The notes under the pieces were generated by a model. That model was given only the letters and a program-made list of their open reading frames with translations. It was not told the origin of the DNA and ran no database searches. DNA of 64,000 bases from Nitrospinales bacterium (GTDB taxonomy: Bacteria > Nitrospinota > Nitrospinia > Nitrospinales > JAJDAT01): assembly GCA_046757665.1 (NCBI GenBank), contig JBHHYO010000008.1:1716-65715 (forward strand), read 5' to 3'. A program made the translations under genes and the position numbers. Below are positions 5,962 to 37,739 of the stretch, piece by piece (positions within the stretch are counted from its first letter, which is position 1; each line of letters starts with the position of its first letter).

Positions 5962-6130
5962 AACTTGATTTTTCAAGCCGTATTTCGTATTATGCTTTTT
6001 CCTCCAACATACCCTGCATTGGCCGGGCCAGGTCGGTCCGAGCCCGGCGGCGCTTGGTTTTCAATTCAAAATTATTTTTTCGGACACCGGCGTGACACGG
6101 CCGGTCCATGTTGAGATAAAGGACGCCTGT

Positions 6131-7894: not shown

Positions 7895-9087
7895 TGGAAA
7901 CCACTCTCGGAGAGACGCTGAACAAACTCGTCGGCATGACCGGCTTGTCGGCCATGATACCCGGAGACGGTGTCATGTTGCTGGTCGCCTGCACCCTGAT
8001 TTATCTCGCCATCGTCAAAAAATTCGAGCCTCTGCTTCTGCTTCCCCTCGGATTCGGCTGTCTGCTGGCCAACCTGCCCCTCAGTCACATGGCGGCCGAC
8101 GACACAGGCGGCTTGTTGAATTTTTTCTATTTCGGCATCAAACACGAAATCCTGCCGCCGCTCATTTTTCTGGGCGTGGGCGCGCTCACGGACTTCGGGC
8201 CCCTGCTGGCCCGGCCGTCCACGCTGTTGCTGGGAGCCGCGGCGCAGATCGGCGTTTACACCACCCTGATCGGCGCGGTGTTTTTGGGGTTCGACCTCAA
8301 GGAAGCCAGCGCCATCGGCATCATCGGCGGCGCCGACGGACCCACCTCCATCTTTCTCGCCGGCAAGCTGGCCCCGCATTTGCTGGGCCCCATCGCCGTC
8401 GCCGCCTATTCCTACATGTCCCTGGTGCCCCTGATCCAGCCGCCGATCATGCGCTGGCTCACCACCGCCAGGGAACGGAAAATCCGAATGGAACAGTTGA
8501 AGCCCATTTCGCAAAACGTCAAGATTCTCTTTCCCATCGCCTCGACGGTCGTCATCGTCCTGTTACTGCCGGGGGTCGCCCCCCTGCTGGGCATGTTGAT
8601 GCTGGGAAACCTGTTCCGGGAATGCGGCGTGACCGCCCGATTGCACGAAACCTCGGAAACGCATTTGATCAACATGGTGACGATTTTCCTGGCCCTGTCC
8701 GTCGGCGCCTCCATGACCGCGGACACGTTTTTGAAGCTGGAGACCCTCAAGATCATCACCCTGGGACTGCTGGCTTTTTGCATGGCCACCGCCGGGGGCG
8801 TGCTGTTCGGCAAGATCATGTGCAAGGTATCCGGCGGACGGGTCAACCCGCTCATCGGTTCGGCCGGAGTGTCGGCGGTTCCCATGGCGGCGCGCGTGTC
8901 GCAGAAAGTGGGCGCCGATGAAGACCACGGCAATTTTCTGCTCATGCACGCCATGGGGCCCAACGTGGCCGGTGTCATCGGCAGTGCGGTAGCCGCCGGC
9001 GTGTTCCTCTCGCTGTTCGGCGGAGCCGATGCCATCGCCCAGGCCGCCCTGGACAGCGCGGCGCTCATCAACCCCCTGGAGCGCTGA
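7894..9087 (+). CDS. oadB: Na+-translocating decarboxylase beta subunit
   Basis: ATG 7894 overlaps the oadA stop (TAATG). Polytopic membrane protein with [10 protein letters not shown] and [14 protein letters not shown], as in the OadB/GcdB/MmdB family. Confidence 0.85.
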
Positions 9088-9092
9088 CCGGC

Positions 9093-9356
9093 ATGTCGAA
9101 CTTTACCGCCTCCCTGGCCATCTCCGGCATCGCCATGTCGGCCATCTTTCTCATCCTGACACTGCTGATCGTCATCGTCAAGGTTCTGGTGGCCTGGTGG
9201 CCGTACGTCGCGCCGCCGCCAACCGCCGCCGACAACCGCCGGCCGGCGCAAAACGCGCCGAACCCGGAACACGTCGCCGCCATCCATGCCGCACTGGCAC
9301 AGTACCTGGGCAAAACCCCGGACGACATCCGCCTGCAAAACATCAAACCGCTATAG
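9093..9356 (+). CDS. oadG: OadG-like small gamma subunit (putative)
   Basis: 87 aa. N-terminal TM (ISGIAMSAIFLILTLLIVIV), Pro/Ala linker, C-terminal EHVAAIHAALAQYLG resembling the OadG C-terminus. Lies 5 nt after oadB. Confidence 0.5.
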   Translation: MSNFTASLAISGIAMSAIFLILTLLIVIVKVLVAWWPYVAPPPTAADNRRPAQNAPNPEHVAAIHAALAQYLGKTPDDIRLQNIKPL

Positions 9357-9361
9357 AGTCC

Positions 9362-9500
9362 ATGCTTCGACAGAGCTTGTCCTGAGCCCGCCGAAGGGCT
9401 CAGCATGACACCGTCCTTCGCTCCATGATACGCGCCGTCACTCTGAGCGACATACTGTCACTCTGAGCCTGTCGAAGAGTCTGAGCCTGTCGCGAAGAGT
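9362..9500. repeat. cluster of family-1 GC-rich palindromic intergenic repeats
   Basis: Hairpin CTGAGCCC-GCCGAA-GGGCTCAG at 9382-9403, flanked by CATGCTTCGACAG..GCATGAC. Then reiterated GTCACTCTGAGC (2 copies) and TCTGAGCCTGTCG(C)GAAGAGTC (2 copies). Related units occur at 10883-11020 and 42099-42205. Confidence 0.75.
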
Positions 9501-9503
9501 CTC

Positions 9504-10871
9504 TTATTTCCGGAAGCCGGCGTGGACGAAGGACACCGGGCCGCGAAACAAGTCAAAAGCTCGCCGCAAATCGTTTTCCCGGTAGCCCAGCTTGAGCAGT
9601 GATTTGACGACGGCGAACACCTCGCCCTCGGTCACGTAGGCCACCGTGTCGGGAACACCGCGGCGGCTCAGGGTTTCGGCCAGGCGGCGGATGGTTTTCC
9701 GCTGTTTTTTGGGTGTGCCGGGTGACGGCGGATATTCCATTTTGTGATCGTAGGGGCTTTGGTAAACCCCGTTCAGCGCGTGCAGTGTGCCCAGCATCAG
9801 AATGTCCCGGTCCCAGGGGGCCATCCGCTCAATCCGCGGATGACTCTGCACCAGTTCCACCGCCCCGGCGACTTTTTCTCCCAGCCGCCGGCTCACGTAC
9901 CGGTGTTGATGTTCCAGGGACACCGGTCGAAAGCCGATCTTCCGGCCCACCTCGGCGAGCAGGGGAAAATTCACCATGGCGGTGTACTGGCCGCCGTAAA
10001 TGTTGAACCAGGGCCGCCCCTGCTGGTTGAGGTCGTCGAAAGACAACATCCCGTAATCCAGGCCGGAGTATCCCAAGCCGTCCGGCGCGAGCAGTTCCCA
10101 GGCTCTTTGCAGGCAGGCCAGGGCGCCGAGATTGACCGGCACGGCAACGCGCTCCGCCAGCTTTTCCGAATGCGCCTCAACAAGCCGGGAAAACGGCCAA
10201 TCGCTGGTATCGACCCGTTGCCAGACCCGTTCCCAAACGATCTGGTCGAGCGGCGCGTCCGCCAATCCATCCGGATTCTTCTCCGCAAAAAAATGCTTGA
10301 AGGACTCGAAATCCATGCCATCCGGGCGCGGCGGCAGAGTGGGGCACAGGTATTCCTCGTATAACAGCCCGTCGTCTTTCCACAGAACCTTGGCCGCCAG
10401 GTCGTCCCAAATTTCGTTGGAAAGAATTTTGTGGATGGAGCGCGGTTTGAAGCAGGCCGGACCTTCCGCGTCCATCAGCACGGCGGAGAACCGTCCGGCG
10501 TGCGCCTGGAGGCGGGAACAGGCGGCAGTAAGAATGGCCCGCGAATAATCGCACAGAAGATAATGCACGCGGGGATACACCCGCCCTTCCGGGTCGCCGG
10601 CCTTCAGGCGGTCGAGGAAACAGGCGGCCAGGTTGCCGTTGCCCACGCCCCATTCCTGGATAAAACAGGTCGAATCGCCGGCAGGGCACTGCTCCAGAAA
10701 TTCATCGGCCAGGCAGTAGGCCAGCCGGTGGTCGCGGCTGACATAGGTTTGAAAATGCCGGTGGATGCCCGAACCCAGCATCCCGTAAAAAAGGCAATTG
10801 ACGTGCGTTTGCCATCGGTCGGCGGGCAGGAACTCTCCCAGCGGCAAGGGGCGTTCAGAAGAGGGGCTCAT
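9504..10871 (-). CDS. class I SAM-dependent methyltransferase, MidA/DUF185-like (putative)
   Basis: 455 aa. Motif-I-like EWGVGNGNLAACFLDRL, then LLCDYSRAIL and ILSNEIWDDLA, resembling the E.G.G.G.L / .NE..DA.P pattern of the MidA/NDUFAF7 family. Confidence 0.5.
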   Translation of the reverse strand: MSPSSERPLPLGEFLPADRWQTHVNCLFYGMLGSGIHRHFQTYVSRDHRLAYCLADEFLEQCPAGDSTCFIQEWGVGNGNLAACFLDRLKAGDPEGRVYPRVHYLLCDYSRAILTAACSRLQAHAGRFSAVLMDAEGPACFKPRSIHKILSNEIWDDLAAKVLWKDDGLLYEEYLCPTLPPRPDGMDFESFKHFFAEKNPDGLADAPLDQIVWERVWQRVDTSDWPFSRLVEAHSEKLAERVAVPVNLGALACLQRAWELLAPDGLGYSGLDYGMLSFDDLNQQGRPWFNIYGGQYTAMVNFPLLAEVGRKIGFRPVSLEHQHRYVSRRLGEKVAGAVELVQSHPRIERMAPWDRDILMLGTLHALNGVYQSPYDHKMEYPPSPGTPKKQRKTIRRLAETLSRRGVPDTVAYVTEGEVFAVVKSLLKLGYRENDLRRAFDLFRGPVSFVHAGFRK

Positions 10872-11039: not shown

Positions 11040-12086
11040 CTAATTTTTTTGTGCGCCCATTGAGTGCATGACCCCCTCGGCGGAGGTGTCGGCGCTTTTG
11101 CCGATACCCGCGGCCTTGTTGGTCAATGCTTCAAATTTCTTGTACGCCTCCTGCGCCTCCTGGGTCCGCCCGACATCCTTGTAACACGTGTAAAGGTTGT
11201 ACCAGGCGTTGATGTCGCCGTCGTTCAGCGCCGTGGCGGTTTTGAACTCCTTGATGGCGCTTTCCACTTTTTTCAGCGAGCCGTACAGGCTTCCCAGATT
11301 GGTGTGCGGGATGGACGATTCCGGGTCAAGCTCTATCGCCTTTTTAAAACTGAAAATGGCTTCCTCAACCATGTTTTTCGCGGAATAAATACTTCCCAGG
11401 TTGCAATGGGCCATGGGGTCCTGGTCGTTCATCTCCAGCACGACCAGGGCGGCGGTCAGGGCTTCGTCGTAATCGCCTGAATTGAAATACGCGCAAGACA
11501 GCGCGGCGCGCAGTTCCAGATCGTCCGGATTGAACATCAACACTTTTTTGAGAACGCGGATTTCCTCGGCGTACAGCTGGCTCATGTCCAGGGAGGCCGC
11601 AAGGTTGGCGTAGGCCGTGGTGTCGGTGGGGTCCAGCTCGATCACCCGCTGGAATTCCTGGGCGGCGCTTTCAAAGGAATCCTGCAACATGTAAATCCCG
11701 CCCAGGTTGAAGCGGATTTCCGGGTCGTCCGGAGCCAGGTCCGCCGCCCGCTTCATTTCGCGGATGCCTTCGTCTTCCTGTTTGGAAAGAATGTAGGCCG
11801 TGCCCAGCACTTTATGGGCGCGCGCGTTGTTTTTGTCCCGGTTGATTACGGTCTTCAACTGCTTGATCGCGTCCTCGTAATTCGCCCCATCGACGTACAG
11901 CGTCCCCAGGTCGATGAGCAGGTCGATGTTGTCGGGATCGTTTTTCAAATCTTTTTTGACCTGGCGCACTTTTTTCATGATGGCGGTTTCGCGTTTGACT
12001 TCCTCCGGGTCGCGCACCCCCAACTCCTGAAAAATCTCCGGATGGATTTTGCATTTGATCGAATATTCGGAATTTGTGTCACTCAT
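11040..12086 (-). CDS. tetratricopeptide (TPR) repeat protein
   Basis: 348 aa with about 8 consecutive 34-aa TPR units (for example AHKVLGTAYILSKQEDEGIREMKRAADLAPDDPE, AYANLAASLDMSQLYAEEIRVLKKVLMFNPDD). Confidence 0.85.
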   Translation of the reverse strand: MSDTNSEYSIKCKIHPEIFQELGVRDPEEVKRETAIMKKVRQVKKDLKNDPDNIDLLIDLGTLYVDGANYEDAIKQLKTVINRDKNNARAHKVLGTAYILSKQEDEGIREMKRAADLAPDDPEIRFNLGGIYMLQDSFESAAQEFQRVIELDPTDTTAYANLAASLDMSQLYAEEIRVLKKVLMFNPDDLELRAALSCAYFNSGDYDEALTAALVVLEMNDQDPMAHCNLGSIYSAKNMVEEAIFSFKKAIELDPESSIPHTNLGSLYGSLKKVESAIKEFKTATALNDGDINAWYNLYTCYKDVGRTQEAQEAYKKFEALTNKAAGIGKSADTSAEGVMHSMGAQKN

Positions 12087-12172: not shown

Positions 12173-13984
12173 TCAGACGCCGCCGGCATCGACCTGTTCC
12201 CGGCCGCGCGCCATGTCGAAAATGCCTTCCTTGCCGAAACGATCGAGATAAAGAAGAAAATGTTCCCGCGACAAATACTTCCAGATTTTGCTGGAAGGAA
12301 AGTGCTCGTCGATGACGGCATTGAAATTCTCGTAAACCTCCCTGACCTCCCGGCGGGACATCCCCCGCTCGATTTCGAAGTCATACATAATGGCCATGTC
12401 GCGTTCGGGATCGTGGACGATCCGGTCGATGGAGAATTTCTCGGGGTTATGGTAAATGGCGGAATCCTTTTCCAGGGCGAAGGTGGATTGGCCGACGGAA
12501 TGGATGATGCCGGCGCCGGTTTCGCCGTGTTCGACGATGAAGGCGACGGTTTCCTCCGCTTCCCGGCGTTCCTCGGTGGGGAAACCGAAAAACAGGTAGT
12601 TGTGATTCCATATCCCGGCGGCGGAACTGTCGCGCATCACCTTTTCTTCCGTCGCCTTGTCGGTGCCCTTGTCTATCAGGGAAAGGATGCGGTCGTTGGC
12701 GCTTTCCAATCCGAAAAACAGCATGAGGAATCCGGCTTGCCGGATGTCGTCGAACAAGTCGGCGTTTTCGACGTTGCTGGATTCAAACTTGATCATGGCG
12801 AGCGCCCGCATATCGACCTTCGCGGAGCGGATGGCGCGGGACATCCGCCGGAAGGCGTTGGGCGACACCGCCTCGTCGGAAAAGGTGAAGTAGCGTGTGT
12901 GGTAGCGCTTGCCGAGGTAGTCCAGGTCTTCCGCCACGCGCTCTTCGTTTTCCTTGCGGTAATAAGAATCGTAGATGAAACTGTGGGTGCAGAACGTGCA
13001 TTTGCCCCAGTAACAGCCGCGGCTCGCCATGTAAGGCAGGACGGGGAAAGGCATCAGATATCTGCCGAGCGGCAGTTGGTCGAAATCCGGGCGCGCCAGC
13101 AGGTCGTAGGGAAGCGACTTGGCGGGCCGGTTGCGCACCACCTTGCCGTTTTCCAGATGAATCAGGTTCGGCACCTCGCCGAGCGGCTTGCCGTTCTCGA
13201 GGCTGTCGATCAAGCATTCGAGGGGATACTCGCCCTCATAAAGCACGACGCTGTGAAAAAATTCCTCGAACAGCGCCTGCTTGTCGCCCAGGATGTCGGC
13301 GTGGCGGTTGAACACACTGCCGCCGATGACGATGTGGGCGTCCGGATACCGCCGCCGCAGTAGCCGCGCCAGGGTCAGGGCGGGAATCACCTGCCCGGCG
13401 TAAATGATCGAAATCCCGATCAGGCCGTACCGCGCCCAGTTCACCCGGCGCAACAGGGTTTCCCGGAACAGGTGCAAGTACGGATTGATGCGGTCGTCCT
13501 GCGTGGCGTGGAGGATGCCCGCCAGGCTGTCCTCCGGCGCGCCGTCCATGGACAGGGAGTCCAGTCCCACCCGGGTGGGGAAATGCGCGTAGGAAACCAG
13601 CTTCATGGCGATCATCAAAGCAGTGTAGGCTTTTTTGTAAACCGGGAATTGGAAAAAAAGCTCCGCGGTGCGCATCACTTCCTTGGCCCGTTCCACTTCC
13701 GACAGGACGGATTCCAGGTAGTCGTGGTCCGAGAGGATTTGCCGGTACACCTGTTTCACTTCCCGCTCCTCCGGGGAGCAGGCCGGGGCATTCAGGCGGG
13801 CGCGGATTTTATCGACGCAATAAAGGAGGAACTGCCGCGAAAGAAATTCGTCGTAAGCTTCCATGTTGAAATCGTACTGGTCCACCGCGTGCCCCTTCTT
13901 CTCCAGGTAAGCCTTCAAGGTGGGCAAGGCCAGGTAAGGCTGGCTGGGATACCATTGCGGTGGAAAAATCAGCGCCGATTTCAT
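12173..13984 (-). CDS. B12-binding-domain (class B) radical SAM protein
   Basis: ORF extends to a TTG at 13999. I prefer ATG 13984. N-terminal B12-like domain (ALIFPPQWYPSQPYLALPTLKAYLEKKGHAV). Radical SAM cluster ASRGCYWGKCTFC. The long antisense ORF 12110-13363 is rejected. Confidence 0.8.
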   Translation of the reverse strand: MKSALIFPPQWYPSQPYLALPTLKAYLEKKGHAVDQYDFNMEAYDEFLSRQFLLYCVDKIRARLNAPACSPEEREVKQVYRQILSDHDYLESVLSEVERAKEVMRTAELFFQFPVYKKAYTALMIAMKLVSYAHFPTRVGLDSLSMDGAPEDSLAGILHATQDDRINPYLHLFRETLLRRVNWARYGLIGISIIYAGQVIPALTLARLLRRRYPDAHIVIGGSVFNRHADILGDKQALFEEFFHSVVLYEGEYPLECLIDSLENGKPLGEVPNLIHLENGKVVRNRPAKSLPYDLLARPDFDQLPLGRYLMPFPVLPYMASRGCYWGKCTFCTHSFIYDSYYRKENEERVAEDLDYLGKRYHTRYFTFSDEAVSPNAFRRMSRAIRSAKVDMRALAMIKFESSNVENADLFDDIRQAGFLMLFFGLESANDRILSLIDKGTDKATEEKVMRDSSAAGIWNHNYLFFGFPTEERREAEETVAFIVEHGETGAGIIHSVGQSTFALEKDSAIYHNPEKFSIDRIVHDPERDMAIMYDFEIERGMSRREVREVYENFNAVIDEHFPSSKIWKYLSREHFLLYLDRFGKEGIFDMARGREQVDAGGV

Positions 13985-14145
13985 CGAATCTCTTTTCAAA
14001 AATCGTGGAATTGGAATGATTCAATTCTATCATGCTTTGGCGGCGCGCCAAACACAATGAGGGGAAATTCGCGTGTTGCTGAAAAATCGGGAACGGCAAG
14101 GCTGGTTTCAATTTCGTTTTTACCACGCGGGCCGGGCAAAAGTCA

Positions 14146-14174
14146 TTGTCAAACCACTCCGCGCGGCGTATAAT
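14146..14174 (+). promoter_or_regulatory. near-consensus sigma70-type promoter candidate
   Basis: TTGTCA (14146-14151), 17-nt spacer, TATAAT (14169-14174). Lies about 355 nt upstream of the GT2 gene at the island boundary. The target transcript is unknown. Confidence 0.35.
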
Positions 14175-14270
14175 TTTTCGACCGAGCAACCAAAAAGGTT
14201 TCGTTGCCACAAAAAAAGCCGTTTTTCCCCCACCCCGCTTTGCTTTTTCCTCGCCGCTCCCAGAGGACAC

Positions 14271-14366
14271 AATGGAGTGGTTTACGGTAACTTGGGCCGC
14301 TGGCAGGAAGCCATCGTCGAATACGAAGAAGCTTTCCGTATCAAGCCGGATGATGTCATGGCACAT
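14271..14366 (+). pseudogene. isolated TPR-like remnant with no start codon
   Basis: The frame of ORF 14073-14438 reads NGVVYGNLGRWQEAIVEYEEAFRIKPDDVMAH, one TPR-like unit. There is no plausible start, and the surrounding sequence is not TPR. GC falls across this segment. Confidence 0.3.
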
Positions 14367-14529
14367 CTTACCCGTGTGACGATTCACACAAATTCTGACC
14401 AACATCAAAAAGACCTTACATATTTTTTTGAACTCTGAAATCCCCAACATTTTTATTTTTGCGTCGAGAATCAGATTGAAAAATTGTTTCCTTTCAAAAT
14501 CTTCAAGTTTAAGAGTCGACTCATAGGCC

Positions 14530-15246
14530 ATGGTTTTTTCCCTGGTTATCCCGTTCTATAATGAAGAGGAATGCGCCAGTCAGATCATTGACTCTCTGGT
14601 TCAATTTCTCGACTCAAGCGCCATTGATTACGAGTTGATTCTTGTCGATAACGGTTCCAGGGATCGAACTGCCGCACTGATCGATCAAAAAGTTGCCCGC
14701 CATCCCCGGCTCAAAAAAGTGACCGTTAAGGTTAATGAAGGGTATGGTTGGGGAATCATCTGTGGATTGCAGGAAGCCCAGGGGGATTATGTGGGTTTTA
14801 TGTGCGGGGACGGGCAGATTCATCCTCAAGATGTGGTTAAATCCATGTCTTACGCTTCCGAATCCAATTGCGCAATGGTCAAAGCTTGCAGGAATACCCG
14901 CCAAGACGGTCTGTTGCGTAGAATTGTGACGCGGATTTATAATTCCATCTTTGCCTTAATTTTTAATCTCAAAACTCATGACCTCAACGGAACGCCAAAA
15001 TTTTTCAAGCGAAGTTATCTGGATATTCTGGACATTCAATCTAAAGATTGGTTTATCGATGCCGAGATAATTATCAAACTGGAGAGTTTAGGCGTTAAAA
15101 TAGATGAAATTCCCGTCGCCTTCCATGCGAGAAAAGGCGGCTCGTCTCATGTAAAAATTGTAACCACTTGCGTTCAGTTTCTGAAAAACGCCTATCGCAT
15201 GAAAACCGGAAAGGATTTCTTGGAATGGAAAAAATCCAAACGGTAA
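14530..15246 (+). CDS. family 2 glycosyltransferase, polyprenyl-phosphate sugar synthase-like (DPM1/ArnC/CsbB type)
   Basis: 238 aa. VIPFYNEE, LILVDNGSRD, FMCGDGQIHP (DXD-equivalent), LNGTPKFFKR. No C-terminal TM helices. Confidence 0.8.
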   Translation: MVFSLVIPFYNEEECASQIIDSLVQFLDSSAIDYELILVDNGSRDRTAALIDQKVARHPRLKKVTVKVNEGYGWGIICGLQEAQGDYVGFMCGDGQIHPQDVVKSMSYASESNCAMVKACRNTRQDGLLRRIVTRIYNSIFALIFNLKTHDLNGTPKFFKRSYLDILDIQSKDWFIDAEIIIKLESLGVKIDEIPVAFHARKGGSSHVKIVTTCVQFLKNAYRMKTGKDFLEWKKSKR

Positions 15247-16019
15247 TCCTGGCTGGGGGATTTGGAACCCGGCTGAGAGAGGAAACCGAGTTTAGACCCA
15301 AGCCCATGGTTCAGATTGGCAACCATCCTATCTTATGGCACATCCTCAAGATTTATTCTTATTACGGTTTCAATGATTTTATAATTTGCCTCGGTTACAA
15401 GGGTGAGCAAATAAAAGAGTATTTTATAAATTATGAATACATGAACAACGACATAACGGTAAAAACAGGAAGTTCGAAATGTATTGAGGTGCACTCAAAC
15501 CACAATAACAAGATGGACGAATGGAACGTAACCCTGGTAGACACGGGCCATTCCAGCATGACCGGGTGCCGAGTCAAACAGATTGAAAAATTCATCGACG
15601 AAGATATTTTTTTTCTGACCTACGGGGATGGGCTGGCCCAGATCGATTTGAAGGAGCTTCTTGCCTTCCACCGTTCGCATGGGAAAACCGCCACCATCAC
15701 TGGAGTCCATCCCCCCTCCCGTTTCGGAGAACTGACCATTGAAAACCACAGGGTGGTCGAATTTACGGAAAAGCCCCAGATTGACTCGGGTTGCATTAAC
15801 GGAGGGTTTTTCGTATTTAACAAGCGGATTTTCGATTATCTCAGTCTGGATAAAGACTGTTATCTGGAATACGAACCCATGGAGCGCCTGGTTAAAGATG
15901 GTGAGCTGATGGTCTATGTGCACAAGGGGTTCTGGCATTGCATGGACACCCAGCGCGATTTGACCCTTTTAAATTCCTTGTGGAAGAAAGACAACCCCCC
16001 GTGGAAAATTTGGACATGA
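15225..16019 (+). CDS. rfbF: glucose-1-phosphate cytidylyltransferase
   Basis: ATG 15225 inside ORF 15168-16019, overlapping the GT2 3' end. [38 protein letters not shown] closely resembles the RfbF N-terminus. 264 aa. Confidence 0.9.
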
Positions 16020-16999
16020 CATCAAACTATTGGCATCAACGAAACGTATTGGTCACAGGCGCCACGGGTTTCCTGGGATCCTGGTTGGTTGAACAACTTC
16101 TCGTTTTCAATGCCCATGTGGTGGGGATCATCCGCGACCAAGTTCCTGATTCGCGGCTGGTCTGCCAAAAGATGAGCATCGTCCACGTCAACGGATGTGT
16201 CGAAGACATTCAGGTTCTGGAACGAACCTTGAACGAATACGAGATCGAAACCGTTTTTCATCTGGCCGCGCAAACCATTGTTGGCATTGCCAATCGGAGT
16301 CCTCTTTCCACTTTCGAAGCCAATATTCGGGGCACCTACAACCTCCTGGAAGCCTGCCGGCGAGTGGGGAGCGTAAAAAATATTGTGATCGCCTCCAGCG
16401 ACAAAGCTTATGGAGAACAAGCAAAGCTTCCTTATGATGAAAGCTTCTCACTGAGCGGGGCTCACCCCTACGATGTATCCAAGAGCTGTGCCGATTTGAT
16501 CGCCAATTGCTATTACCAAAGTTATGACCTTCCCGTATGTATTACCCGGTGCGGCAATTTTTACGGTGGCGGAGACTTGAATTTTAACCGTTTGATTCCC
16601 GGGACCATTCGGTCGGTCCTCAACGGCGCTCCCCCCGTCATTCGAAGTGACGGCACCTATATCAGAGATTACATTTATATCCAGGACGCCGTTACGGCCT
16701 ACTTGTTGCTGGCCGAAAAAATGGAAACCCTGCCGGTCAGGGGAGAGGCATTCAATTTCAGCAACGAGTCCCAAAAAAAGGCTCTGGAAATCGTGGAAAT
16801 GATTTTACAATTGATGGATCAAAAAAACCTTGAACCCGTCGTTTTGGCAGAGGCCTCCAATGAAATTCCCAAACAGTACCTCAGCGCAAAAAAAGCTAGG
16901 GAACGCCTGAACTGGAAGCCGCGTTATTCTTTGGAGGAAGGCTTAAAGGAGACTATTGCCTGGTATCGGGATTTTTGGGGACAAAATCGTGGCAAATGA
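16016..16999 (+). CDS. rfbG: CDP-glucose 4,6-dehydratase (extended SDR)
   Basis: ATG 16016 overlaps the rfbF stop (ATGA). [14 protein letters not shown]ossmann motif and YDVSK (YxxxK). Sits between rfbF and rfbH. Confidence 0.8.
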
Positions 17000-17972
17000 A
17001 TTTAAGAATAAAACCGTCCTGGTCACAGGAGCCTCCGGTTTCATTGGCTCCCATTTGACTCGTCGATTGGTGGGTCGGGGAGCAAACGTCCATGTTTTCG
17101 CGCGGCAGGGCACTGACCTTTGGCGACTGGAGGATTTGATCGCCAACGACGTAACCGTGTGGAATACGGACATCAATGATTTGGACAGGATCCGTCAATT
17201 CATCAAGCAGATTTGTCCCCAAAGGGTCTTCCACCTTGCGGCCGCGGTGAACCCGGGACGTTCTCTGGATTTGCTGGATGAAATGATTGCCGTCAATATC
17301 CAGGGAACCGTAACCCTTCTAAAAGCCTTGGAGGAGAGTGACCTCGAATCTTTTGTCCATGTGGGAACCTGTGAAGAGTATGGAGATGGCGCGGCGCCTT
17401 TCGACGAGGAACAAAGAGAAGCGTCCGTTTCACCTTACTCCGCCTCAAAAATTTCGGCGACCCATTTTTCCCAGATGTTTCATAAAATCACCGGCAAACC
17501 CGTCATCATCGTCCGGCCTTTCCTAACTTACGGTCCCGGCCAGGTTTCCAACATGTTGATCCCCAGTTTGATCCGGCATTGCTTGAATCATGAACCGCAA
17601 TTTCATATGACCAAGGGCCAACAAACGAGGGAATTCAATTATGTGTCCGATGTAGTCGAAGGCATTGTGCGCGCCTCGGATTGCGGGAAACGGGCTGGCG
17701 AAATCGTCAACATCGGCAATGGCAAGGAATATAAGGTAATCGAGGTGGCCCGAATGATCGTGAAAATCATGGATTCCCCAATAAAGTTGCAATGCGGCAC
17801 TTTAAATCACCGAAAAGGAGAAGTGAATCATTTTTATGCCTCCACCGACAAATTCACAAAACTTCTAAAACCTCCTCGGTTTACCTCCTTGAAAGAAGGT
17901 TTGGAAAAGACAATCGCCTGGTTTGCCGAGCATTTGGGTAAAAACAAGGCCAAGCCTGTTTGCATCCCATGA
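16989..17972 (+). CDS. NAD-dependent sugar epimerase/reductase (extended SDR)
   Basis: The ORF opens with TTG at 16956. GTG 16989 gives [23 protein letters not shown] and overlaps the rfbG stop, so the start is uncertain. YSASK catalytic motif. Substrate not assignable. Confidence 0.75.
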
Positions 17973-19300
17973 ATAATGACAAACAAAAAGAACAGATAAA
18001 GGAAAAAATCTTCCGTTTGGTAGAAGAATATTACACCCTTGAACATAAACCCGATCACTTTGTTCCTGGCCAATCGAGAGTCCACTACGCCGGCAGAGTA
18101 TTTGACGAAAAAGAAATGCAGGCGGCCACCCGTAGTGTTCTCGATTTCTGGTTGACTTACGGCAAGGAATCCGAGGCTTTTGAAGAAGCCCTGGCAAAGT
18201 TCCTTGACAGAAAGTATGTGGTTTTAGTCAATTCCGGCTCTTCCGCAAATTTGTTGGCGGTTACGGCTCTTGTCGCCGAAGATTATAAAAACCGGTTGAA
18301 GGCCGGGCACGAGGTTATCACTCCGGCATTGACGTTCCCAACGACCCTTGCTCCCATCGTTCAAAACGGCTTGGTTCCCGTGTTTGTCGATACTGAAATC
18401 GGCACCTACCTGATGGATATCAATTTGATAGAAAAAGCCATTTCCGAAAAAACCAAAGCCGTCTTTATCCCCCACACCCTGGGAAACGTCGCCGACATGA
18501 CCGCGCTTGCGGCGCTTTGCGAAAAGCATAATTTAATAATCATCGAGGACACTTGTGATGCCTTGGGGTCTCTTTATAAAACAAAAAAGGCGGGGTCTTT
18601 TGGCCTGTTGTCAACCTTCAGCTTTTATCCCGCACACCACATTACCCTCGGGGAAGGCGGAGCGGTGGCGACGGACAGCAAAAGGCTGAAAAAAATTGTC
18701 ACTTCCTTGAGGGATTGGGGAAGAGACTGCTATTGCAAATCCGCAAGCCCGATTAACGGTGAATGCAACCGGCGATTCGAACAAAGATGGGAGGGATTGC
18801 CCAAGGGTTATGATCACAAGTACGTCTATACACACATGGGCTACAACCTGAAGGCGCTGGACATCCAGGCGGCCATTGGGCTCGAGCAACTGAAGAAGCT
18901 CCCGCAGTTTGTTCAAAGACGCAGAGAGAACTTCGAAAGACTAAATAATGCCTTAAGGCCTTATTCCGAATATCTGATCCTTCCAAGGGCAGGAGAGAAT
19001 GCCAAGCCTTCCTGGTTCTCGTTTATCATCACCGTGAAACCCAATAAATTTTTCACGCGACACAGCCTGGTGACTTTTTTAAAAGATCACGATATTGAAA
19101 CCCGGATGATGTTCAGCGGAAATATTCTCAGGCAACCCGCCTTCAAAAATATCCGGCACAGGGTGTACGGGAACCTGGACAACACAGATTTCATCATGAA
19201 CAATACGTTCTTCATTGGAGTATCCCCCAACCTGACCCCGGAAATGCTGGATTATATGGTTCAGACTTTTCAAATGTTTTTTGAACGACACATTCATTAG
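17969..19300 (+). CDS. rfbH: CDP-4-keto-6-deoxy-D-glucose 3-dehydrase (E1; RfbH/DdhC type)
   Basis: ATG 17969 overlaps the SDR stop (ATGA). DegT-fold protein in which SFYPAHHITLGEGG has His where aminotransferases have the PLP Lys. Cys spacing C-X57-C-X1-C (DTC...RDCYC) with a further Cys 9 residues later. Confidence 0.85.
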   Translation: MNNDKQKEQIKEKIFRLVEEYYTLEHKPDHFVPGQSRVHYAGRVFDEKEMQAATRSVLDFWLTYGKESEAFEEALAKFLDRKYVVLVNSGSSANLLAVTALVAEDYKNRLKAGHEVITPALTFPTTLAPIVQNGLVPVFVDTEIGTYLMDINLIEKAISEKTKAVFIPHTLGNVADMTALAALCEKHNLIIIEDTCDALGSLYKTKKAGSFGLLSTFSFYPAHHITLGEGGAVATDSKRLKKIVTSLRDWGRDCYCKSASPINGECNRRFEQRWEGLPKGYDHKYVYTHMGYNLKALDIQAAIGLEQLKKLPQFVQRRRENFERLNNALRPYSEYLILPRAGENAKPSWFSFIITVKPNKFFTRHSLVTFLKDHDIETRMMFSGNILRQPAFKNIRHRVYGNLDNTDFIMNNTFFIGVSPNLTPEMLDYMVQTFQMFFERHIH

Positions 19301-19493
19301 CGATTCGCTTGAAAAGCAAACGCGGCATTCCAGCGCAGGATTTTCCATTCAAATATCAGGACACTCATTCCAAAGGGATTGTATGATTTAAGATGTTTTT
19401 CCCGGATGTCAATGTTACAGTATAGCGTTTAGATTATAAAAAAGGGCTGTGCGTTTTTATCTGAAGTATCAACCACTTTTGTAGGGGTAGGAA

Positions 19494-21197
19494 ATGATTG
19501 TCAAGACAACCTTGATCAATCCTCCGCAAATTTTTACCAAGAGTCAGGTAGCCTCCGGGGTTACCCCGCCGTTGGGTATCGCCTACCTTGCGTCTTACCT
19601 TATTCATAGAAAATGTCCGGTACAAGTTATTGATGCTTTGGGAGAGGCGCCGGAAAAAATCTCCGCTTTCAAAAAAGAATCCTTTTTGCGTGGTTTATCC
19701 TTTGAGGAGATCGTAAACAAAATTGACCCCCAATCGCAGTTGATAGGAATTTCCAATCTGTTCAGCTTTGCCTACCCCGCAGTGGAAATATTGTTCCGGA
19801 AAATCCATGAACGGTATCCGGATAAAACAATAATTTTAGGAGGACCTCACCCTTCCGCTCTTTACAAGGAAATTCTTTTACAGAATCCGCAGGTAAGTTT
19901 TGTGGCGTTAGGCGAAGGGGAAGAAAGCCTTTTCAGGCTGGTCAGGCATCTTGATGGAGAATTGGATTGGAATGAGCTAACGGGCATTGCCACACGCAAT
20001 GGCGACGAAAAAGTTCTCCTGCTAGAATCCACCAAGCGCATCAGCGACCTCGAACAAACCAATATTCCCTTTCCCGCCCGGCATCTGCTCCCCATGGAAA
20101 ACTACATTAAGGCCCAGGAATCGCACGGGCCTTCTTTGGGCAGATGGACCTCCATGCTCAGCTCAAGAGGATGCCCCTATGGCTGTACTTTTTGCGAATC
20201 CAGAAGGACAAAGTGGTTTGCGCGTTCGGCCAGGGACGTTGTAGATGAAATGGAGCATTGTATCCAGGAATATGGGATCAGCGAGTTTCACTTTGAAGAC
20301 GACAACATGACGATCAATAAAAGCAGATTGATCGAAATTTGCGATGAAATCTTAAAACGCGGCCTCAACATCAAATGGCAAACACCCAATGGCATTCGGG
20401 CCAGCATCACCGACGAAGAAATGCTCAGAAAGATGAAAGCAAGTGGATGCATGCATATTACACTGGCCCCCGAAAGCGGATCCGAAAGAGTTCTCAAAGA
20501 CATCGTCGTAAAAGGACGAGATTTCGACCTGGAGCAGTTGAAAGATTGCGGCGCCCTGGCACACAAGATTGGACTGAAGGTGGCGGCATTTCTGATCCTG
20601 GGTTTGCCCGGAGAGACCAAAGAGGATATGGAAATGACCATCCAGTACGGCAAGGAATTAGCCAAGGCAGGTGTAGACGAAGCCGCTTTTAGCCTTTTTA
20701 TCCCTTTGCCGGGAACTCCTCTATGGGATGCCGTCAGCGACCAACTTGAAAACGTGGACCTACTTGACCTCCTGGCGGCGGGCGATTTAAACAGAGCCAA
20801 ATCCTGGAATGCTCATATTTCCGACGATGAACTGAATGCCTATCGTCGGAGGGCCTATTTATCCTTTTTCTTCACTCGCATGATTTATCATCCGCTGAGC
20901 TTTCTCAAGTCTGTTTCAAACGTTTTTCGCAATATTGAGGAAACCAAAACAGAGAGAACATTGCGGCAATTTCTGAAACGGTTTAAGATCAAAAAAAAGA
21001 AGTTTACTTCCGTGAACGAACACGTCCCCGCGGTTCAAGAAGATTTAAACGCTTATCCCTACGATGCCACCGCTTCGATGAAAGTTCTTTTTCAAAATGG
21101 ACCTCAACACGCTTATGGTCATAGCCTGTTAAAGACGTATCGCTTGATTTTAAAAGAATTCCTTGCTTTCATATCACCTGACAAAAACAAACCTTAA
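19494..21197 (+). CDS. B12-binding-domain (class B) radical SAM protein
   Basis: 567 aa. N-terminal B12-like domain (LINPPQ..PPLGIAYLASYL, ILGGPHPS). Radical SAM cluster SSRGCPYGCTFC. ESGSERVL motif. Confidence 0.85.
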   Translation: MIVKTTLINPPQIFTKSQVASGVTPPLGIAYLASYLIHRKCPVQVIDALGEAPEKISAFKKESFLRGLSFEEIVNKIDPQSQLIGISNLFSFAYPAVEILFRKIHERYPDKTIILGGPHPSALYKEILLQNPQVSFVALGEGEESLFRLVRHLDGELDWNELTGIATRNGDEKVLLLESTKRISDLEQTNIPFPARHLLPMENYIKAQESHGPSLGRWTSMLSSRGCPYGCTFCESRRTKWFARSARDVVDEMEHCIQEYGISEFHFEDDNMTINKSRLIEICDEILKRGLNIKWQTPNGIRASITDEEMLRKMKASGCMHITLAPESGSERVLKDIVVKGRDFDLEQLKDCGALAHKIGLKVAAFLILGLPGETKEDMEMTIQYGKELAKAGVDEAAFSLFIPLPGTPLWDAVSDQLENVDLLDLLAAGDLNRAKSWNAHISDDELNAYRRRAYLSFFFTRMIYHPLSFLKSVSNVFRNIEETKTERTLRQFLKRFKIKKKKFTSVNEHVPAVQEDLNAYPYDATASMKVLFQNGPQHAYGHSLLKTYRLILKEFLAFISPDKNKP

Positions 21198-21341
21198 AAT
21201 TTTTAGCGTGTTCCTCAGCAGATTGCTTTGAATCCATTGGAAGAGGAATCCCCCGCTTTTTACCCAACGCCCCCGCACCTGTTTCATCTTTAAACAGTCC
21301 CTTGCCTTAAAATTATTTTTGTTTCTTTGAAATCACAGAAA

Positions 21342-23015
21342 ATGCCTGCATCCACACAATCCACCTTTTCCGCAATTGCCGGAAACGACCGTTTTCTTCT
21401 TCCCCTGGTTTGTTTCCTGATGTTTATCAAACGATTCCTTTTGTTGGATTATGGATACAACTACGAGGAAGGGAAAGAATTGGAATGTGTCATCAACATT
21501 TTAAATGGAAAGATGATCTACAGAGACTTTTTCTGGCAGTATGGCCCGGGGCCTCTGTATGTGTTCGCCTTGCTGTTCAAGATATTTGGCGAGGTGAATT
21601 TTTTGATCCCGCGAGGAGTGGTTTCTTTGGTTGCCGTTCTAACCACTTTTTATTCTTATCGTGTTGCCAGAATTTATCTCCCCGCTCCGTGGGCTTTTTG
21701 GGCCGCCCTGATGGCATCCTCGGGCTTAGCGGCACGAGAGGGCACCTACGGTCACGGGTTCGCCTACCTGGGAATGATTGCTTCATTTTATTACTTGCTA
21801 CGATTTTTTAAACGGGAAAGTTCGGAAAACAGCCTGATCGCATCCGGCTTGTTCGTTTTCATGGCTTTGCTCAGCAAACCGATTGTCTTTGGAGCCGGGG
21901 CGGTCGTGAGCGGCCTTTTCGGCCTTGGGTTGTGGACACTGTGCAAACCCGCAAAACAACTACCCTGGATTCCCATTGCAAAATTTTTGGCCGCTGGCTT
22001 GCTCCCGGCTTTCTTCGTCTTTGGTTATTTGTTTTGGCATACCCCGACCAATCTTTTCATAGCCAGCCTGCTTCCCATGACTTCCGGATCACTTTCCTTG
22101 GGGGAATTTAATATCAAGCCACTATTCCCCCCAATACCGGCGGCACCCTGGCAGGAGTGGCTGACGGGATTAAACAAGTATCTTGTCGATTCTTTCAGAT
22201 GGTGGACCATCCTGTTGACCGTGGCGGGAGGAATCGGGGTGATTATCAAAGGGTGTTTCAGGGATGGGAAAAGTTTCCATGGCTACTTTTTTCTGGTGAT
22301 TTTATTAATTTACGCTTTGCTGGTCGAATCCGAGACAATCATCCTGATCCAGCGTCCCATTACTTTTTATATCAATATGCTTCCAAGCTACATTTTGCTG
22401 GCCATGTTTTTAATTTGGCTCAAAGAAAAAATGACTGGCGCGGTTTTCGTGCGAAGCGTTGCCTTGATTTTTTGTATCACTTATTTTTTCTATCCCCCGA
22501 TCCGATTGGGTTTGTACTATTGGACGAACACCAAACCTTTGGCGCTGAAATACGCGGAAAATATAAAGGTCCCCGATTATACCCGCACGACTTATCGAAA
22601 CATTGCCGAATACATTCAAAAACATACCCCTCCCGAAAAACCTATCGTTTTTGCCGGATACAACAGTTTTATCTACTTGTCCTCAAACCGGGCGTCGCTG
22701 TTTCCCGAAGATTTTGCCACGTTTACCAGAGTTTCATTCCACCCTTACCACAGTGGGAAAGCGCCGTTTCCCAAAGCGTTTTATAAAAAGGCCGAGGCAA
22801 AAATCGTTGAGCGCATTCAAACCGGTTCGGCATCCATGATTTTAATTCCCAAGGCCTATCTGGAGGAAAACAACCTGAAAAAATCTGTGTTTTTGCAATA
22901 CCTTGTGAAAAATTGGAAAAGCCGGGGAGTTTTAAATTCAGGCCTCAGGCCGGGCCCGTTTGACAAGGTTGATTTGACACTGGAGGTTTTTGTTCGCGAA
23001 GGCAAAAACGGTTGA
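21342..23015 (+). CDS. polytopic membrane protein, GT-C (ArnT/PMT)-like glycosyltransferase (putative)
   Basis: ATG 21342 (the ORF opens with TTG at 21327). At least 10 hydrophobic segments in the first ~400 aa, an acidic first loop (DYGYNYEEGKE) and a soluble C-terminal ~150 aa. Last gene of the low-GC island. Confidence 0.6.
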   Translation: MPASTQSTFSAIAGNDRFLLPLVCFLMFIKRFLLLDYGYNYEEGKELECVINILNGKMIYRDFFWQYGPGPLYVFALLFKIFGEVNFLIPRGVVSLVAVLTTFYSYRVARIYLPAPWAFWAALMASSGLAAREGTYGHGFAYLGMIASFYYLLRFFKRESSENSLIASGLFVFMALLSKPIVFGAGAVVSGLFGLGLWTLCKPAKQLPWIPIAKFLAAGLLPAFFVFGYLFWHTPTNLFIASLLPMTSGSLSLGEFNIKPLFPPIPAAPWQEWLTGLNKYLVDSFRWWTILLTVAGGIGVIIKGCFRDGKSFHGYFFLVILLIYALLVESETIILIQRPITFYINMLPSYILLAMFLIWLKEKMTGAVFVRSVALIFCITYFFYPPIRLGLYYWTNTKPLALKYAENIKVPDYTRTTYRNIAEYIQKHTPPEKPIVFAGYNSFIYLSSNRASLFPEDFATFTRVSFHPYHSGKAPFPKAFYKKAEAKIVERIQTGSASMILIPKAYLEENNLKKSVFLQYLVKNWKSRGVLNSGLRPGPFDKVDLTLEVFVREGKNG

Positions 23016-23056
23016 ACATCGGATCCGTTTTTTCATGGGCGGTGTAACCTTTGCGG

Positions 23057-24067
23057 TCAGCCGTCCACATCGACCAGTTGCTTGACGGACAAGTGGTCGC
23101 GGAGAATAAAGTACAGCCCCGCCAGCACCACCAGCCCGACGTTCAGCGCCCAGGCCATCATGCCGAAACTCACCGCCGCTATCTCGGATTCGTTCAGGAT
23201 TTCGTGCAGGGCAATCAACACTCCGGCGTGGAACGATCCGACAAAACCGGGCGTCGGCAGGGTGGCAATGAAAATACAAATGACCACCACCAGCATCACC
23301 AGGGATGCGAGCGATTTATCCTGCAAATCGTAGGCCCAGTACAGGGGATAATAACTGATAACGATGAACACCCAGACGATGACGGAATACAGGGTGATCT
23401 TGACCAGGGCCTTGAAATCCCGGACGACTCGAAATCCCTCGCTGAAGGTTTCCATCAGGTGCTCGACTTTATCGTGCCATTTTTTCGGCAGGGGAACCCA
23501 TTTGACCAGCGCGACCATCCAGGATCGTTTGAACAGCATCAGATAAATAAAAACGCAAAGCGCCGCCACCATACCCGTCGCCAGCAAACCGAATTTAAAA
23601 GCAAGTTCGTCCAGGGTCATTCCCGACCACTGGCTACCGGAATCGAACGCATCGGCGTGAAACAGCAAAAGCCAGGCGAACAGTCCCAGCACCATTAGCG
23701 TGTCGAACAACCGTTCGACGACAATGGTGGCGAACGAGCCGGAAAAGGAAATGTCTTGCTGTTTGCCCAGAAGGTAGGCGCGGATAAGTTCTCCGGCGCG
23801 GGCGGGCAACAGGTTGCCCATATAGCCGATCATCAACGGCGAGTAAAGTTTGCCCGCCTCGACCGGTTTTATGGGAACCAGCAGTTCCTGCCAGCGGTAG
23901 GCCCGGGCGACGAAGCTGAAAAATATCAGGAGGGAGGCGGGAACCAGGTAAATATAATCGACCGAGGCGAAGGACGCCGCCAACTCCTTCAAGGAAATGT
24001 TCCGCAACGTGAAGTACATGGCCAGGGCGGCGATCACCAGGCCGATGATCAGTGATTTGGTTTTCAT
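23057..24067 (-). CDS. UPF0104 / lysyl-PG-synthase-TM 'flippase-like' membrane protein
   Basis: ATG 24067 overlaps the ribF stop (ATGA). 336 aa, about 8 TM, conserved LLPARAGELIRAYLL. The upstream part of ORF 23057-24730 is Arg/Gly junk overlapping ribF. Confidence 0.7.
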   Translation of the reverse strand: MKTKSLIIGLVIAALAMYFTLRNISLKELAASFASVDYIYLVPASLLIFFSFVARAYRWQELLVPIKPVEAGKLYSPLMIGYMGNLLPARAGELIRAYLLGKQQDISFSGSFATIVVERLFDTLMVLGLFAWLLLFHADAFDSGSQWSGMTLDELAFKFGLLATGMVAALCVFIYLMLFKRSWMVALVKWVPLPKKWHDKVEHLMETFSEGFRVVRDFKALVKITLYSVIVWVFIVISYYPLYWAYDLQDKSLASLVMLVVVICIFIATLPTPGFVGSFHAGVLIALHEILNESEIAAVSFGMMAWALNVGLVVLAGLYFILRDHLSVKQLVDVDG

Positions 24068-36876: not shown

Positions 36877-37214
36877 GAAATGACCCTTGCTTTATCAATC
36901 TCCCCTCTTTCCTGATACTGACCATTACTGTCACTCATTATTTATTGTGATAAAAAAAGTTCCACACGGACGTGCTTGTTAATCGGAAAAAATTTGAGCC
37001 CGCAGAAAACCTTTATATTGAATATATTGAAAAATAATGCTTTAATAAGATAATTATTAATGGATTTAATATTGGTATAGTTTATGCATTATTATGGTAT
37101 AGGTAAAATCATTTAATCTGTTGACAGAAAACCACGAGAATAATAATTATTATATCTAATCATAGCTAGACCAGCTTATAGTTTATATAAATTTTAACTG
37201 AATTTGAGGGTGAC
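36877..37214. promoter_or_regulatory. AT-rich intergenic regulatory island
   Basis: Hand-counted lines 37021-37200 are 15-28% GC against about 60% in the flanks. Direct repeats: ATATTGA (37015, 37024), TGGTATAG (37073, 37095), TATAGTTTAT (37076, 37177). TTGACA at 37121. Confidence 0.5.
37073..37088 (+). promoter_or_regulatory. possible sigma54 -24/-12 element
   Basis: TGGTAT-AGTTT-ATGCA with GG-N10-GC spacing. The -12 is ATGC rather than TTGC. Lies 127 nt upstream of the cNMP gene. Confidence 0.2.
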
Positions 37215-37586: not shown

Positions 37587-37712
37587 TTCTCCCGCCTGCC
37601 CCCAGCCCTTGACTTGCAGGATGCCCCCGCATACAACCTGTTGAAATAATAGTCTTTCCTCGCCTTTTCCGCGCCACGGCAACGAATCTACAACTTATTT
37701 CGATTTCCCCCC

Positions 37713-37739
37713 TAAAGTTTCCCGGAATTCTCCCGTTAA
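37713..37739 (+). promoter_or_regulatory. sigma28 (FliA)-type promoter candidate
   Basis: TAAAGTTT (37713-37720), 11-nt spacer, CCCGTTAA (37732-37739). The consensus is TAAAGTTT-N11-GCCGATAA. The -35 matches 8/8 and the -10 matches 6/8. Lies 118 nt upstream of flaG. Confidence 0.4.

Follow-up and report, generated by a model that had tools for sequence, protein, structure and literature searches.

Three-component systems are the general bacterial route for attaching sugars to lipid A, O-antigens, teichoic acids and proteins on the far side of the cytoplasmic membrane. Rare 3,6-dideoxyhexoses have long been known as immunodominant sugars and as phage receptors. Here we analyze a seven-gene, low-GC island of a Nitrospinales bacterium in which glycosyltransferase genes lie together with genes for a cytidine diphosphate (CDP)-activated sugar. 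The DNA studied, termed the window, is a whole stretch of 64,000 nucleotides (nt) (contig JBHHYO010000008.1, positions 1,716-65,715), and coordinates given below for the island and its flanks are window positions. Three-component glycosylation has been well described (Mann and Whitfield 2016, cited in PMC11127046); Gram-positive systems are reviewed in PMC8035078 and pentofuranose systems are the subject of Kelly et al. 2024 (PMC11127046). Known lipid-linked donors stem from uridine diphosphate (UDP)- or guanosine diphosphate (GDP)-sugars or from phosphoribosyl pyrophosphate (PRPP). With a probability that we put at about 0.6, the seven genes of the island form a single operon that serves extracytoplasmic glycosylation of this type, comparable to ArnC/ArnT, GtrB/GtrC and CsbB/YfhO and equipped with its own donor-sugar pathway.

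The island resembles the GtrA/B/C, ArnC/ArnEF/ArnT, CsbB/GtcA/YfhO and pentofuranose systems in pairing, at the level of fold, a polyprenyl-phosphate glycosyltransferase of family 2 (GT2) with a transferase of the GT-C fold. This agrees with the lipid-linked logic that an earlier annotation made from the letters of the DNA (the sequence-only reading) had recognized in it by comparison with ArnC/ArnT, GtrB/GtrC and CsbB/YfhO. It differs from these systems in its donor, which would be a CDP-3,6-dideoxyhexose and not UDP-Glc, UDP-GlcNAc, UDP-Ara4FN, GDP-Man or PRPP, in a GT2 that has no C-terminal transmembrane (TM) helices, in the inclusion of a B12-binding radical S-adenosylmethionine (SAM) gene, and in having neither a GtrA, ArnE/F or Wzx-type flippase gene nor any phage association that we could find. 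Like seroconversion-type modules, the island is compact, compositionally foreign and variable between relatives.

With the CDP-3,6-dideoxyhexose pathway of Salmonella and Yersinia O-antigens (rfbF/G/H/I with rfbS/J/E; ascA-F; ddhA-D), the island shares clear orthologues of RfbF and RfbH/E1 and an RfbG-like enzyme whose best structural relatives are CDP-glucose 4,6-dehydratases. Unlike that pathway, it has no detected E3 gene (rfbI/ascD/ddhD), its short-chain dehydrogenase/reductase (SDR) is distant from the characterized paratose, abequose and ascarylose synthases, and it is linked to a polyprenyl-phosphate glycosyltransferase and a GT-C enzyme, whereas the O-antigen pathway serves cytoplasmic O-unit transferases with Wzx and Wzy.

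Composition, gene content and predicted pathway of the island

GC content is 46.5% in 14001-23030 and 57.3% in the rest of the window; the other 9-kb intervals (n=73) range from 0.546 to 0.599 with a standard deviation (sd) of 0.015, which places the island about 7 sd lower. Tetranucleotide correlation with the rest of the window, normalized for base composition, is 0.82-0.85 for island segments and 0.93-0.96 elsewhere, and GC at third codon positions (GC3) is 0.48-0.57 in the seven island genes against 0.69-0.78 in native neighbors. Both composition edges are sharp and coincide with gene boundaries. The left edge lies at ~13900-14000 (100-bp resolution), at the start codon of an upstream minus-strand radical SAM gene (12173-13999), and the right edge at ~23020, directly past the stop of the last island gene. 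Sliding GC and tetranucleotide profiles, together with GC3, all deviate from the flanks and so bear out the low-GC island of the sequence-only reading. Of the bounds it had proposed, 14280-23030, the right one holds, but the island begins slightly earlier on the left.

The island consists of seven tightly packed open reading frames (ORFs) on one strand, as had been described from the letters. The GT2 and RfbF genes overlap by 22 nt and the RfbG-like and second SDR genes by 11 nt; the ATGA overlaps reported at 16016 (RfbF/RfbG-like) and 17969 (SDR/RfbH) were verified. These start/stop codon overlaps couple GT2, RfbF, RfbG, SDR and RfbH translationally. The remaining intergenic gaps measure 193 bp and 129 bp within the island, with 41 bp after the GT-C gene.

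The first gene of the island (14530..15246, plus strand, as are all seven) encodes a GT2 of 238 amino acids (aa) without a TM segment (Pfam PF00535). Its best sequence matches in the Protein Data Bank (PDB), over nearly the whole length, are ArnC, DPMS and GtrB. When its AlphaFold2 (AF2) model (predicted local distance difference test, pLDDT, 92.8) was compared with known structures by Foldseek, the top 16 matches were all ArnC, GtrB or DPMS (query TM-score, TMq, 0.70-0.82). Model and sequence matches together make the protein, by predicted fold, a polyprenyl-phosphate glycosyltransferase, in line with the polyprenyl-phosphate sugar-synthase type assigned to it before. The conserved linkage of its gene, described below, suggests that the donor would be a CDP-sugar and the product a polyprenyl-phosphate-(di)deoxyhexose.

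RfbF/DdhA, a glucose-1-phosphate cytidylyltransferase (15225..16019; TIGR02623, 357 bits, cut-off 300), is 67-70% identical to Nitrospinota homologues in contigs L005, L006 and L016. The next gene (16016..16999) encodes an RfbG/DdhB-like extended SDR, a probable CDP-glucose 4,6-dehydratase judging from its match to TIGR02622 (218 bits, below the cut-off of 278) and from its best PDB matches, the CDP-glucose 4,6-dehydratases 1WVG and 1RKX (Salmonella and Yersinia enzymes). A second extended SDR (16989..17972; 327 aa from a GTG at 16989) matches Pfam Epimerase and, in the PDB, UDP-GlcA 4-epimerase-like enzymes and 6PMH best; it reaches no curated family cut-off and may be the C4 ketoreductase or epimerase that completes the CDP-sugar. 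RfbH/DdhC/E1 (17969..19300), the CDP-6-deoxy-L-threo-D-glycero-4-hexulose 3-dehydrase of C3 deoxygenation, scores 625 bits against NF011936 (cut-off 423) and matches Yersinia E1 (3BCX) over its full length with 471 bits. The Schiff-base Lys is replaced by His (SFYPAHHIT), and the expected Cys cluster is present (DTC...DCYC...GEC). These matches support RfbF, the RfbG-like enzyme and RfbH as the predicted core of a CDP-3,6-dideoxyhexose pathway.

The last gene (21342..23015) encodes a membrane glycosyltransferase with a predicted GT-C fold; its length is 557 aa if translation starts at the ATG (21342) and 562 aa if it starts at a TTG (21327). The NCBI name of an identical protein is 'ArnT family glycosyltransferase'. 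No Pfam or NCBIfam family matches the protein directly, and its remote relatives in a profile search match Pfam PMT_2 (PF13231). A fold search was needed because the sequence profile retrieved nothing relevant from the PDB. With an AF2 model built on 13 homologues (pLDDT 80.9; predicted TM-score, pTM, 0.84), the top 19 Foldseek matches were all GT-C enzymes (STT3, PglB, AglB, DPY19, AftA, ArnT, ALG9/12 and AftB; E 8.5e-8 to 2.6e-4, TMq 0.42-0.57), the oligosaccharyltransferases STT3, PglB and AglB ranking slightly above ArnT. An invariant acidic motif, NYEEGKE...RDF (N45, E47, E48, K50, E51, R66, D67), stands directly after the first TM helix, the position at which GT-C enzymes bear catalytic acidic residues, and the protein carries a soluble C-terminal domain. 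It shares with ArnT and PMT_2 (GT83/GT39-like) enzymes the GT-C fold, an acidic motif where the first periplasmic loop begins, and a periplasmic domain at its C-terminus. It differs from them in having no Pfam or NCBIfam match of its own and in belonging to a small family nearly confined to Nitrospinota, whose core comprises 13 proteins in a word-indexed search and 18 clusters at E <=1e-30. Both the modeled fold and the PMT_2 relatives agree with the earlier call of a GT-C-like membrane protein, which would move a sugar from a lipid carrier to a periplasmic acceptor.

Read as one pathway, the island would work as follows. RfbF, assigned at family level, would form CDP-glucose, which the RfbG-like SDR would probably convert to CDP-4-keto-6-deoxyglucose. 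RfbH/E1, likewise assigned at family level, would strip the 3-hydroxyl, a step that needs an E3-type reductase, none being encoded in the island. The second SDR might then reduce or epimerize the 4-keto sugar to a CDP-3,6-dideoxyhexose. At the inner membrane face the GT2, placed by its fold and supplied with a donor suggested by linkage, would move the dideoxyhexose from CDP to polyprenyl phosphate; some flippase would carry the lipid-linked sugar across the membrane; and the GT-C enzyme, also placed by its fold, would transfer the sugar to a periplasmic acceptor, perhaps lipopolysaccharide (LPS), protein or another glycan.

Between RfbH and the GT-C gene lies the gene for the B12-binding radical SAM enzyme (19494..21197; 567 aa, motif CPYGCTFC), which has class B architecture, with a B12-binding N-terminus (PF02310, 44 bits, cut-off 32.1) and a CxxxCxxC core (PF04055, 77.6 bits). 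It scores far under every NCBIfam cut-off (best Sden_1168, 192 bits against 575; also BchE and HpnJ). The nearest PDB structures, at low scores, are AprD4 (64 bits), a sugar diol-dehydratase, and TokK, a methyltransferase. More than 1800 homologues, 50-71% identical across phyla, make up its family, which occurs among glycan genes in every context examined; the gene stands beside the GT-C gene both in the window and in locus L008. Most likely the enzyme would tailor the sugar, for example by C-methylation or by AprD4-like chemistry, and this is the weakest step of the scheme.

In other phyla (L009, L010, L103 and L104; members 51-56% identical), recurrent neighbors of this radical SAM family are SAM methyltransferases, a membrane protein of 499-599 aa without Pfam match, a GT2 of GtrB/ArnC type and, in L009, a GtrA-type flippase. 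The gammaproteobacterium Candidatus Marimicrobium litorale (L009, 5393-12648) and a related contig (L010) hold the order GtrA, methyltransferase, 499-547-aa membrane protein, methyltransferase, radical SAM and a 322-aa GT2. Locus L104 has a methyltransferase, the radical SAM gene and a 599-aa membrane protein, and in L103 the radical SAM gene is part of a large cluster of GT2, epimerase, NTP-transferase and methyltransferase genes. The large membrane proteins of L009, L010, L103 and L104 were considered as members of our GT-C family and rejected, as BLASTP and profile searches gave no sequence similarity. In a metagenomic context designated P0029 (JGI 3300072015; genes 5571-7496 and 8001-9665), a 641-aa NTP_transferase/radical SAM fusion lies beside a radical SAM gene of the island family, a GFO_IDH_MocA oxidoreductase and a GT2; the fusion hints at radical chemistry on nucleotide-sugars.

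The hopanoid genes HpnI (GT2), HpnJ, HpnK and HpnL (LPG_synthase_TM) also bring together a GT2, a B12-radical SAM enzyme and a UPF0104 protein, and the substrate of HpnJ, the B12-radical SAM member, is a lipid-linked sugar. The parallel goes no further than resemblance: there is no HpnK in the island, the UPF0104 gene is a native neighbor and not part of the module, and the analogy was dropped on scores (HpnJ 139 bits against a cut-off of 578; HpnB and HpnA matches marginal).

Linkage of the GT2 subfamily to CDP-sugar genes

An alignment of the GT2 subfamily was used to scan GTDB, one genome per species, at an identity of at least 40%, and the 80 loci retrieved were annotated locally. They come from over 15 bacterial and archaeal phyla, among them Nitrospinota, Chloroflexota, PVC, Omnitrophota, Elusimicrobiota, Planctomycetota, Gemmatimonadota and Acidobacteriota, as well as Desulfotomaculum and Desulforamulus isolates, Methanocellaceae, Methanotrichaceae and Woesearchaeota. 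Cultured carriers include Desulforamulus aeronauticus DSM 10349 (L070) and D. aquiferis (L025). In 39 of the 75 loci with enough sequence, RfbF is the next gene downstream of the GT2 and has the same orientation; in 53 of the 80 it lies within 10 kb. Within that distance the other cassette genes occur at 47 (RfbG), 37 (second SDR) and 14 (RfbH) of the 80 loci. A large protein (380 aa or more) with eight or more hydrophobic (TM) segments is encoded no more than 6 kb away in 41/80 loci, directly adjacent in 15, and a B12-radical SAM protein is present in 11/80. Because the linkage recurs over many phyla, GT2-RfbF-RfbG-SDR(-RfbH) is a conserved, widespread cassette and no accident of this island.

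The sequence-only reading had remarked that the coupling of lipid-linked logic to a CDP-deoxysugar pathway was not known to be described. As far as the literature goes this stands: we found no open-access full-text paper in which polyprenyl-phosphate glycosyltransferases or GT-C enzymes are connected with CDP-sugars, rfbH or 3,6-dideoxyhexoses, which is absence of evidence only. The arrangement itself, however, is widespread in bacteria and archaea. Three-component glycosylation is already known; the main interest here is the wide spread of the cassette, which points to a possible CDP specificity of a polyprenyl-phosphate glycosyltransferase. Tentatively, and at slightly less than even odds, we propose that the GT2 (~240 aa) represents a family, widespread in bacteria and archaea, of polyprenyl-phosphate glycosyltransferases that depend on CDP-sugars and feed GT-C enzymes; in some clusters the conserved B12-radical SAM enzyme may tailor the sugar while it is bound to lipid or nucleotide.

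If so, charging of a lipid carrier from a CDP-activated hexose would be seen for the first time, adding a new class of donor and a new nucleotide specificity for polyprenyl-phosphate glycosyltransferases. The donors would be polyprenyl-phosphate-6-deoxy- or 3,6-dideoxyhexoses, and dideoxyhexoses would be added outside the cytoplasm in many uncultured phyla. A function would also be assigned to a cassette of poorly known phyla (Nitrospinota, Chloroflexota, Planctomycetota, Elusimicrobiota, Omnitrophota and methanogenic archaea), and the island offers a testable context for a very large orphan family of B12-radical SAM enzymes.

In other Nitrospinota, members of the GT-C family stand beside a polyprenyl-phosphate-type GT2, a CDP-sugar cassette or both, in varying gene orders and genome positions. 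The order is GT2, GT-C in L004; GT2, GT-C, GT2, RfbF, SDR, SDR, RfbH in L005; GT4, GT-C, GT2, RfbF, SDR, SDR, RfbH in L006 (a Tara contig); a divergent GT2 beside GT-C in L003; and B12-radical SAM, GT-C in L008. L004, L005 and L011 share one backbone (PlsY, BamD, ExbBD, peptidase M18, Nfu, a tetratricopeptide repeat (TPR) gene ... ABC ATPase, DUF420, HmuY), in which a single slot after the TPR gene has three contents: GT2 and GT-C with SDR and GT2 in L004 (6019-11199), GT2 and GT-C with a full CDP-sugar cassette in L005 (7080-15247), and a B12-radical SAM gene alone in L011 (9127-11707). Three different contents on one backbone are the signature of a variable surface-glycan locus, and the slot therefore looks like a hypervariable surface-glycan locus of Nitrospinota. 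For its host, the island probably represents a surface trait that differs between strains and is under pressure from phages or grazers.

These relatives hold two paralogous GT2s of the polyprenyl-phosphate type. The one found first in the CDP-sugar operon of L004, L005 and L016 is the orthologue of the island GT2 (52-57% identity), which is only 23% identical to the one beside GT-C.

In Elusimicrobiota (L046, 5858-7365; L062, 9458-10956), the GT-C-side paralogue lies beside the cassette GT2 or itself heads RfbF-RfbG-SDR-RfbH, with B12-radical SAM genes nearby, so both GT2 paralogues are tied to CDP-sugar genes. A 4.5-kb contig labeled Candidatus Uhrbacteria (L015, JACQWH010000031.1) has GT2, SDR and GT-C, arranged as they are in the Nitrospinota contig L014. 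The two are about equally similar to the window proteins (GT2 55% in L015 and 57% in L014; GT-C ~51-53%) and bear NC_groundwater isolate names, apparently from one series; L015 is probably a mis-binned Nitrospinota contig and not a gene source from the candidate phyla radiation (CPR).

Alternative readings of function and origin

Several observations weigh against a self-contained three-component operon. The GT2 lacks a membrane anchor, and neither the RfbG-like enzyme nor the second SDR scores above a curated family cut-off. A crude motif scan (Fer2 Cys pattern + RxY[ST] + GxGxxP) found no candidate E3 reductase (AscD/RfbI) in the window or in any fetched locus, including those with RfbH; the gene may lie elsewhere in the genome. 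A second polyprenyl-phosphate-type GT2 stands directly beside GT-C in relatives and has no copy in the island, so the natural partner of the GT-C enzyme could be that paralogue. No flippase gene is present in the island, and no further ORF occurs there, its gaps being 193, 129 and 41 bp; a GtrA seed search of the window and the cassette loci, a weak single-sequence test, also returned nothing. The sequence-only reading had drawn attention to a native flippase-like gene of the UPF0104/LPG_synthase_TM family that abuts the island (23057..24067, minus strand; PF03706, TIGR00374). Its native composition is borne out (GC3 0.74), and it probably lies outside the module. As the flippase of the module it was rejected, because it does not co-occur with the module in relatives: among the 80 loci there is one marginal UPF0104 match near the cassette (L082, E 3e-5, 21.9 bits), and none is annotated beside GT-C in the five relatives' contexts examined (L003-L008). 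Finally, we know of no CDP-dependent polyprenyl-phosphate glycosyltransferase, and to our knowledge CDP-dideoxyhexoses serve only as donors for cytoplasmic Leloir transferases.

In another reading, the island is a fragment of an ordinary O-antigen or exopolysaccharide locus. Its GT2 would be a cytoplasmic Leloir transferase that adds a CDP-dideoxyhexose to an undecaprenyl-diphosphate (Und-PP)-oligosaccharide, much as WbaV adds abequose or tyvelose in Salmonella, and its membrane protein an unrelated GT-C, ligase or polymerase-like protein. The absence of a TM helix from the GT2 and of a flippase gene from the island would fit, as would low GC and variability, both typical of glycan loci, and the characterized uses of CDP-3,6-dideoxyhexoses are not known to include any outside the cytoplasm. 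Yet the GT2 matches ArnC, GtrB and DPMS over its whole catalytic domain and above all other PDB GT2s, the island contains no phosphoglycosyltransferase, Wzx, Wzy, Wzz or ABC exporter, and the GT2 and GT-C pair recurs in L003 and L004 without other glycan-assembly genes, all of which leaves an O-antigen fragment unlikely. We regard it as less likely still, indeed improbable, that GT2 and GT-C use a common donor such as UDP-glucose or GDP-mannose while the CDP-sugar genes only happen to lie nearby and supply a different transferase encoded elsewhere. The second, DPMS-like GT2 directly beside GT-C in relatives would favor such an arrangement, as would the occurrence of GT-C without nearby CDP-sugar genes in L003 and L008. 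But the window GT2 is the orthologue of the CDP-operon paralogue and not of the GT-C-side one, and in roughly half of the 75 loci, across many phyla, the gene of its subfamily abuts RfbF or overlaps it, an adjacency for which it is hard to account unless the two share a substrate.

How the module reached this genome is a separate question. Composition, sharp edges and shuffled contexts make horizontal acquisition of the island likely. The closest homologues of all placeable island proteins are from Nitrospinota (52-76% identity), which suggests that the module probably came from a lower-GC lineage of the same phylum. In other Nitrospinota its homologues occupy different contexts, genome positions and gene orders, and do not lie in synteny with the island. 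The module might instead be ancestral, its low GC reflecting a local bias in mutation or selection such as is typical of surface-glycan genes. That the best homologues are all within the phylum would agree with ancestry, as would the fact that in other Nitrospinota contigs of high GC the module again has a lower GC than the DNA around it. The lack of mobility marks would fit as well: no tRNA and no Rfam match occur in the whole window, no integrase or transposase domain in the flanking genes and no meaningful direct or inverted repeat at the island ends, as the earlier annotation had also noted for integrase, transposase and tRNA; viral contigs hold no GT-C relatives and only generic GT2s of no more than 34% identity. 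A metagenome scan with the neighboring RibF for relatives with the same flank gave only proteins 38-44% identical, from other lineages, and no empty site; an exact look-up retrieved two contigs (L001 and L002; Logan, different runs) that are 100% identical to the window. Because mobility genes, tRNA, repeats and an empty site are all missing, the case for transfer is confined to composition and shuffled synteny, which counts against it. Against ancestry stand the GC3 gap of 0.2-0.3, the deviant tetranucleotide usage, the sharp edges at gene boundaries and the change of genomic context and gene order in each relative; module GC, moreover, stays at ~38-53% whatever the GC of the host (37-58%). 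On balance an ancestral module seems rather unlikely, although the strongest of the alternatives. Of the island first proposed, the deviant composition stands and the contexts are shuffled, but no empty site or donor was found.

Borders and neighboring genes

The left end of the island is a low-GC leader of 530 bp (14000..14529, plus strand). A sigma-70-like site, TTGTCA-17-TATAAT (14146-14174, plus strand), agrees with the consensus at 11/12 positions and is a putative promoter by consensus match only. Farther down the leader, an ORF at 14073-14438 on the same strand includes a TPR-repeat remnant (GNLGRWQEAIVEYEEAFRIKPDDVMAH..., ~14270-14435) with weak Pfam TPR matches below cut-offs. We considered it as a scar of the donor locus and rejected this, since it has only generic similarity (E 0.16-0.6) to the TPR gene bordering the slot in L004, L005 and L011 and lies in the opposite orientation. 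The island's right edge is the 41-bp gap (23016..23056) between GT-C and UPF0104, two genes that converge; it holds a small palindrome, CGGATCCG, followed by a T-run. Palindrome and T-run may form a putative terminator; a terminator scan did not pick up the palindrome.

On the left, the island abuts a second B12-binding radical SAM gene, the minus-strand gene at 12173-13999, of native composition (GC3 0.78). Its best match is TIGR03975, a C-methyltransferase of ribosomally synthesized and post-translationally modified peptide (RiPP) maturation, at 131 bits and under the cut-off, and it is adjoined by a gene for a 348-aa multi-TPR protein (11040-12086, minus strand). Elsewhere in the window there is a second, smaller low-GC spot at 37001-38000 (1-kb GC 0.464), between a response-regulator/GGDEF gene (35929-36876) and a FlaG-like ORF (37857-38282). 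A 400-aa ORF at 4893-6095 (plus strand), without Pfam match, has a GC3 of 0.43 amid high-GC3 genes and is either a non-gene or another atypical gene.

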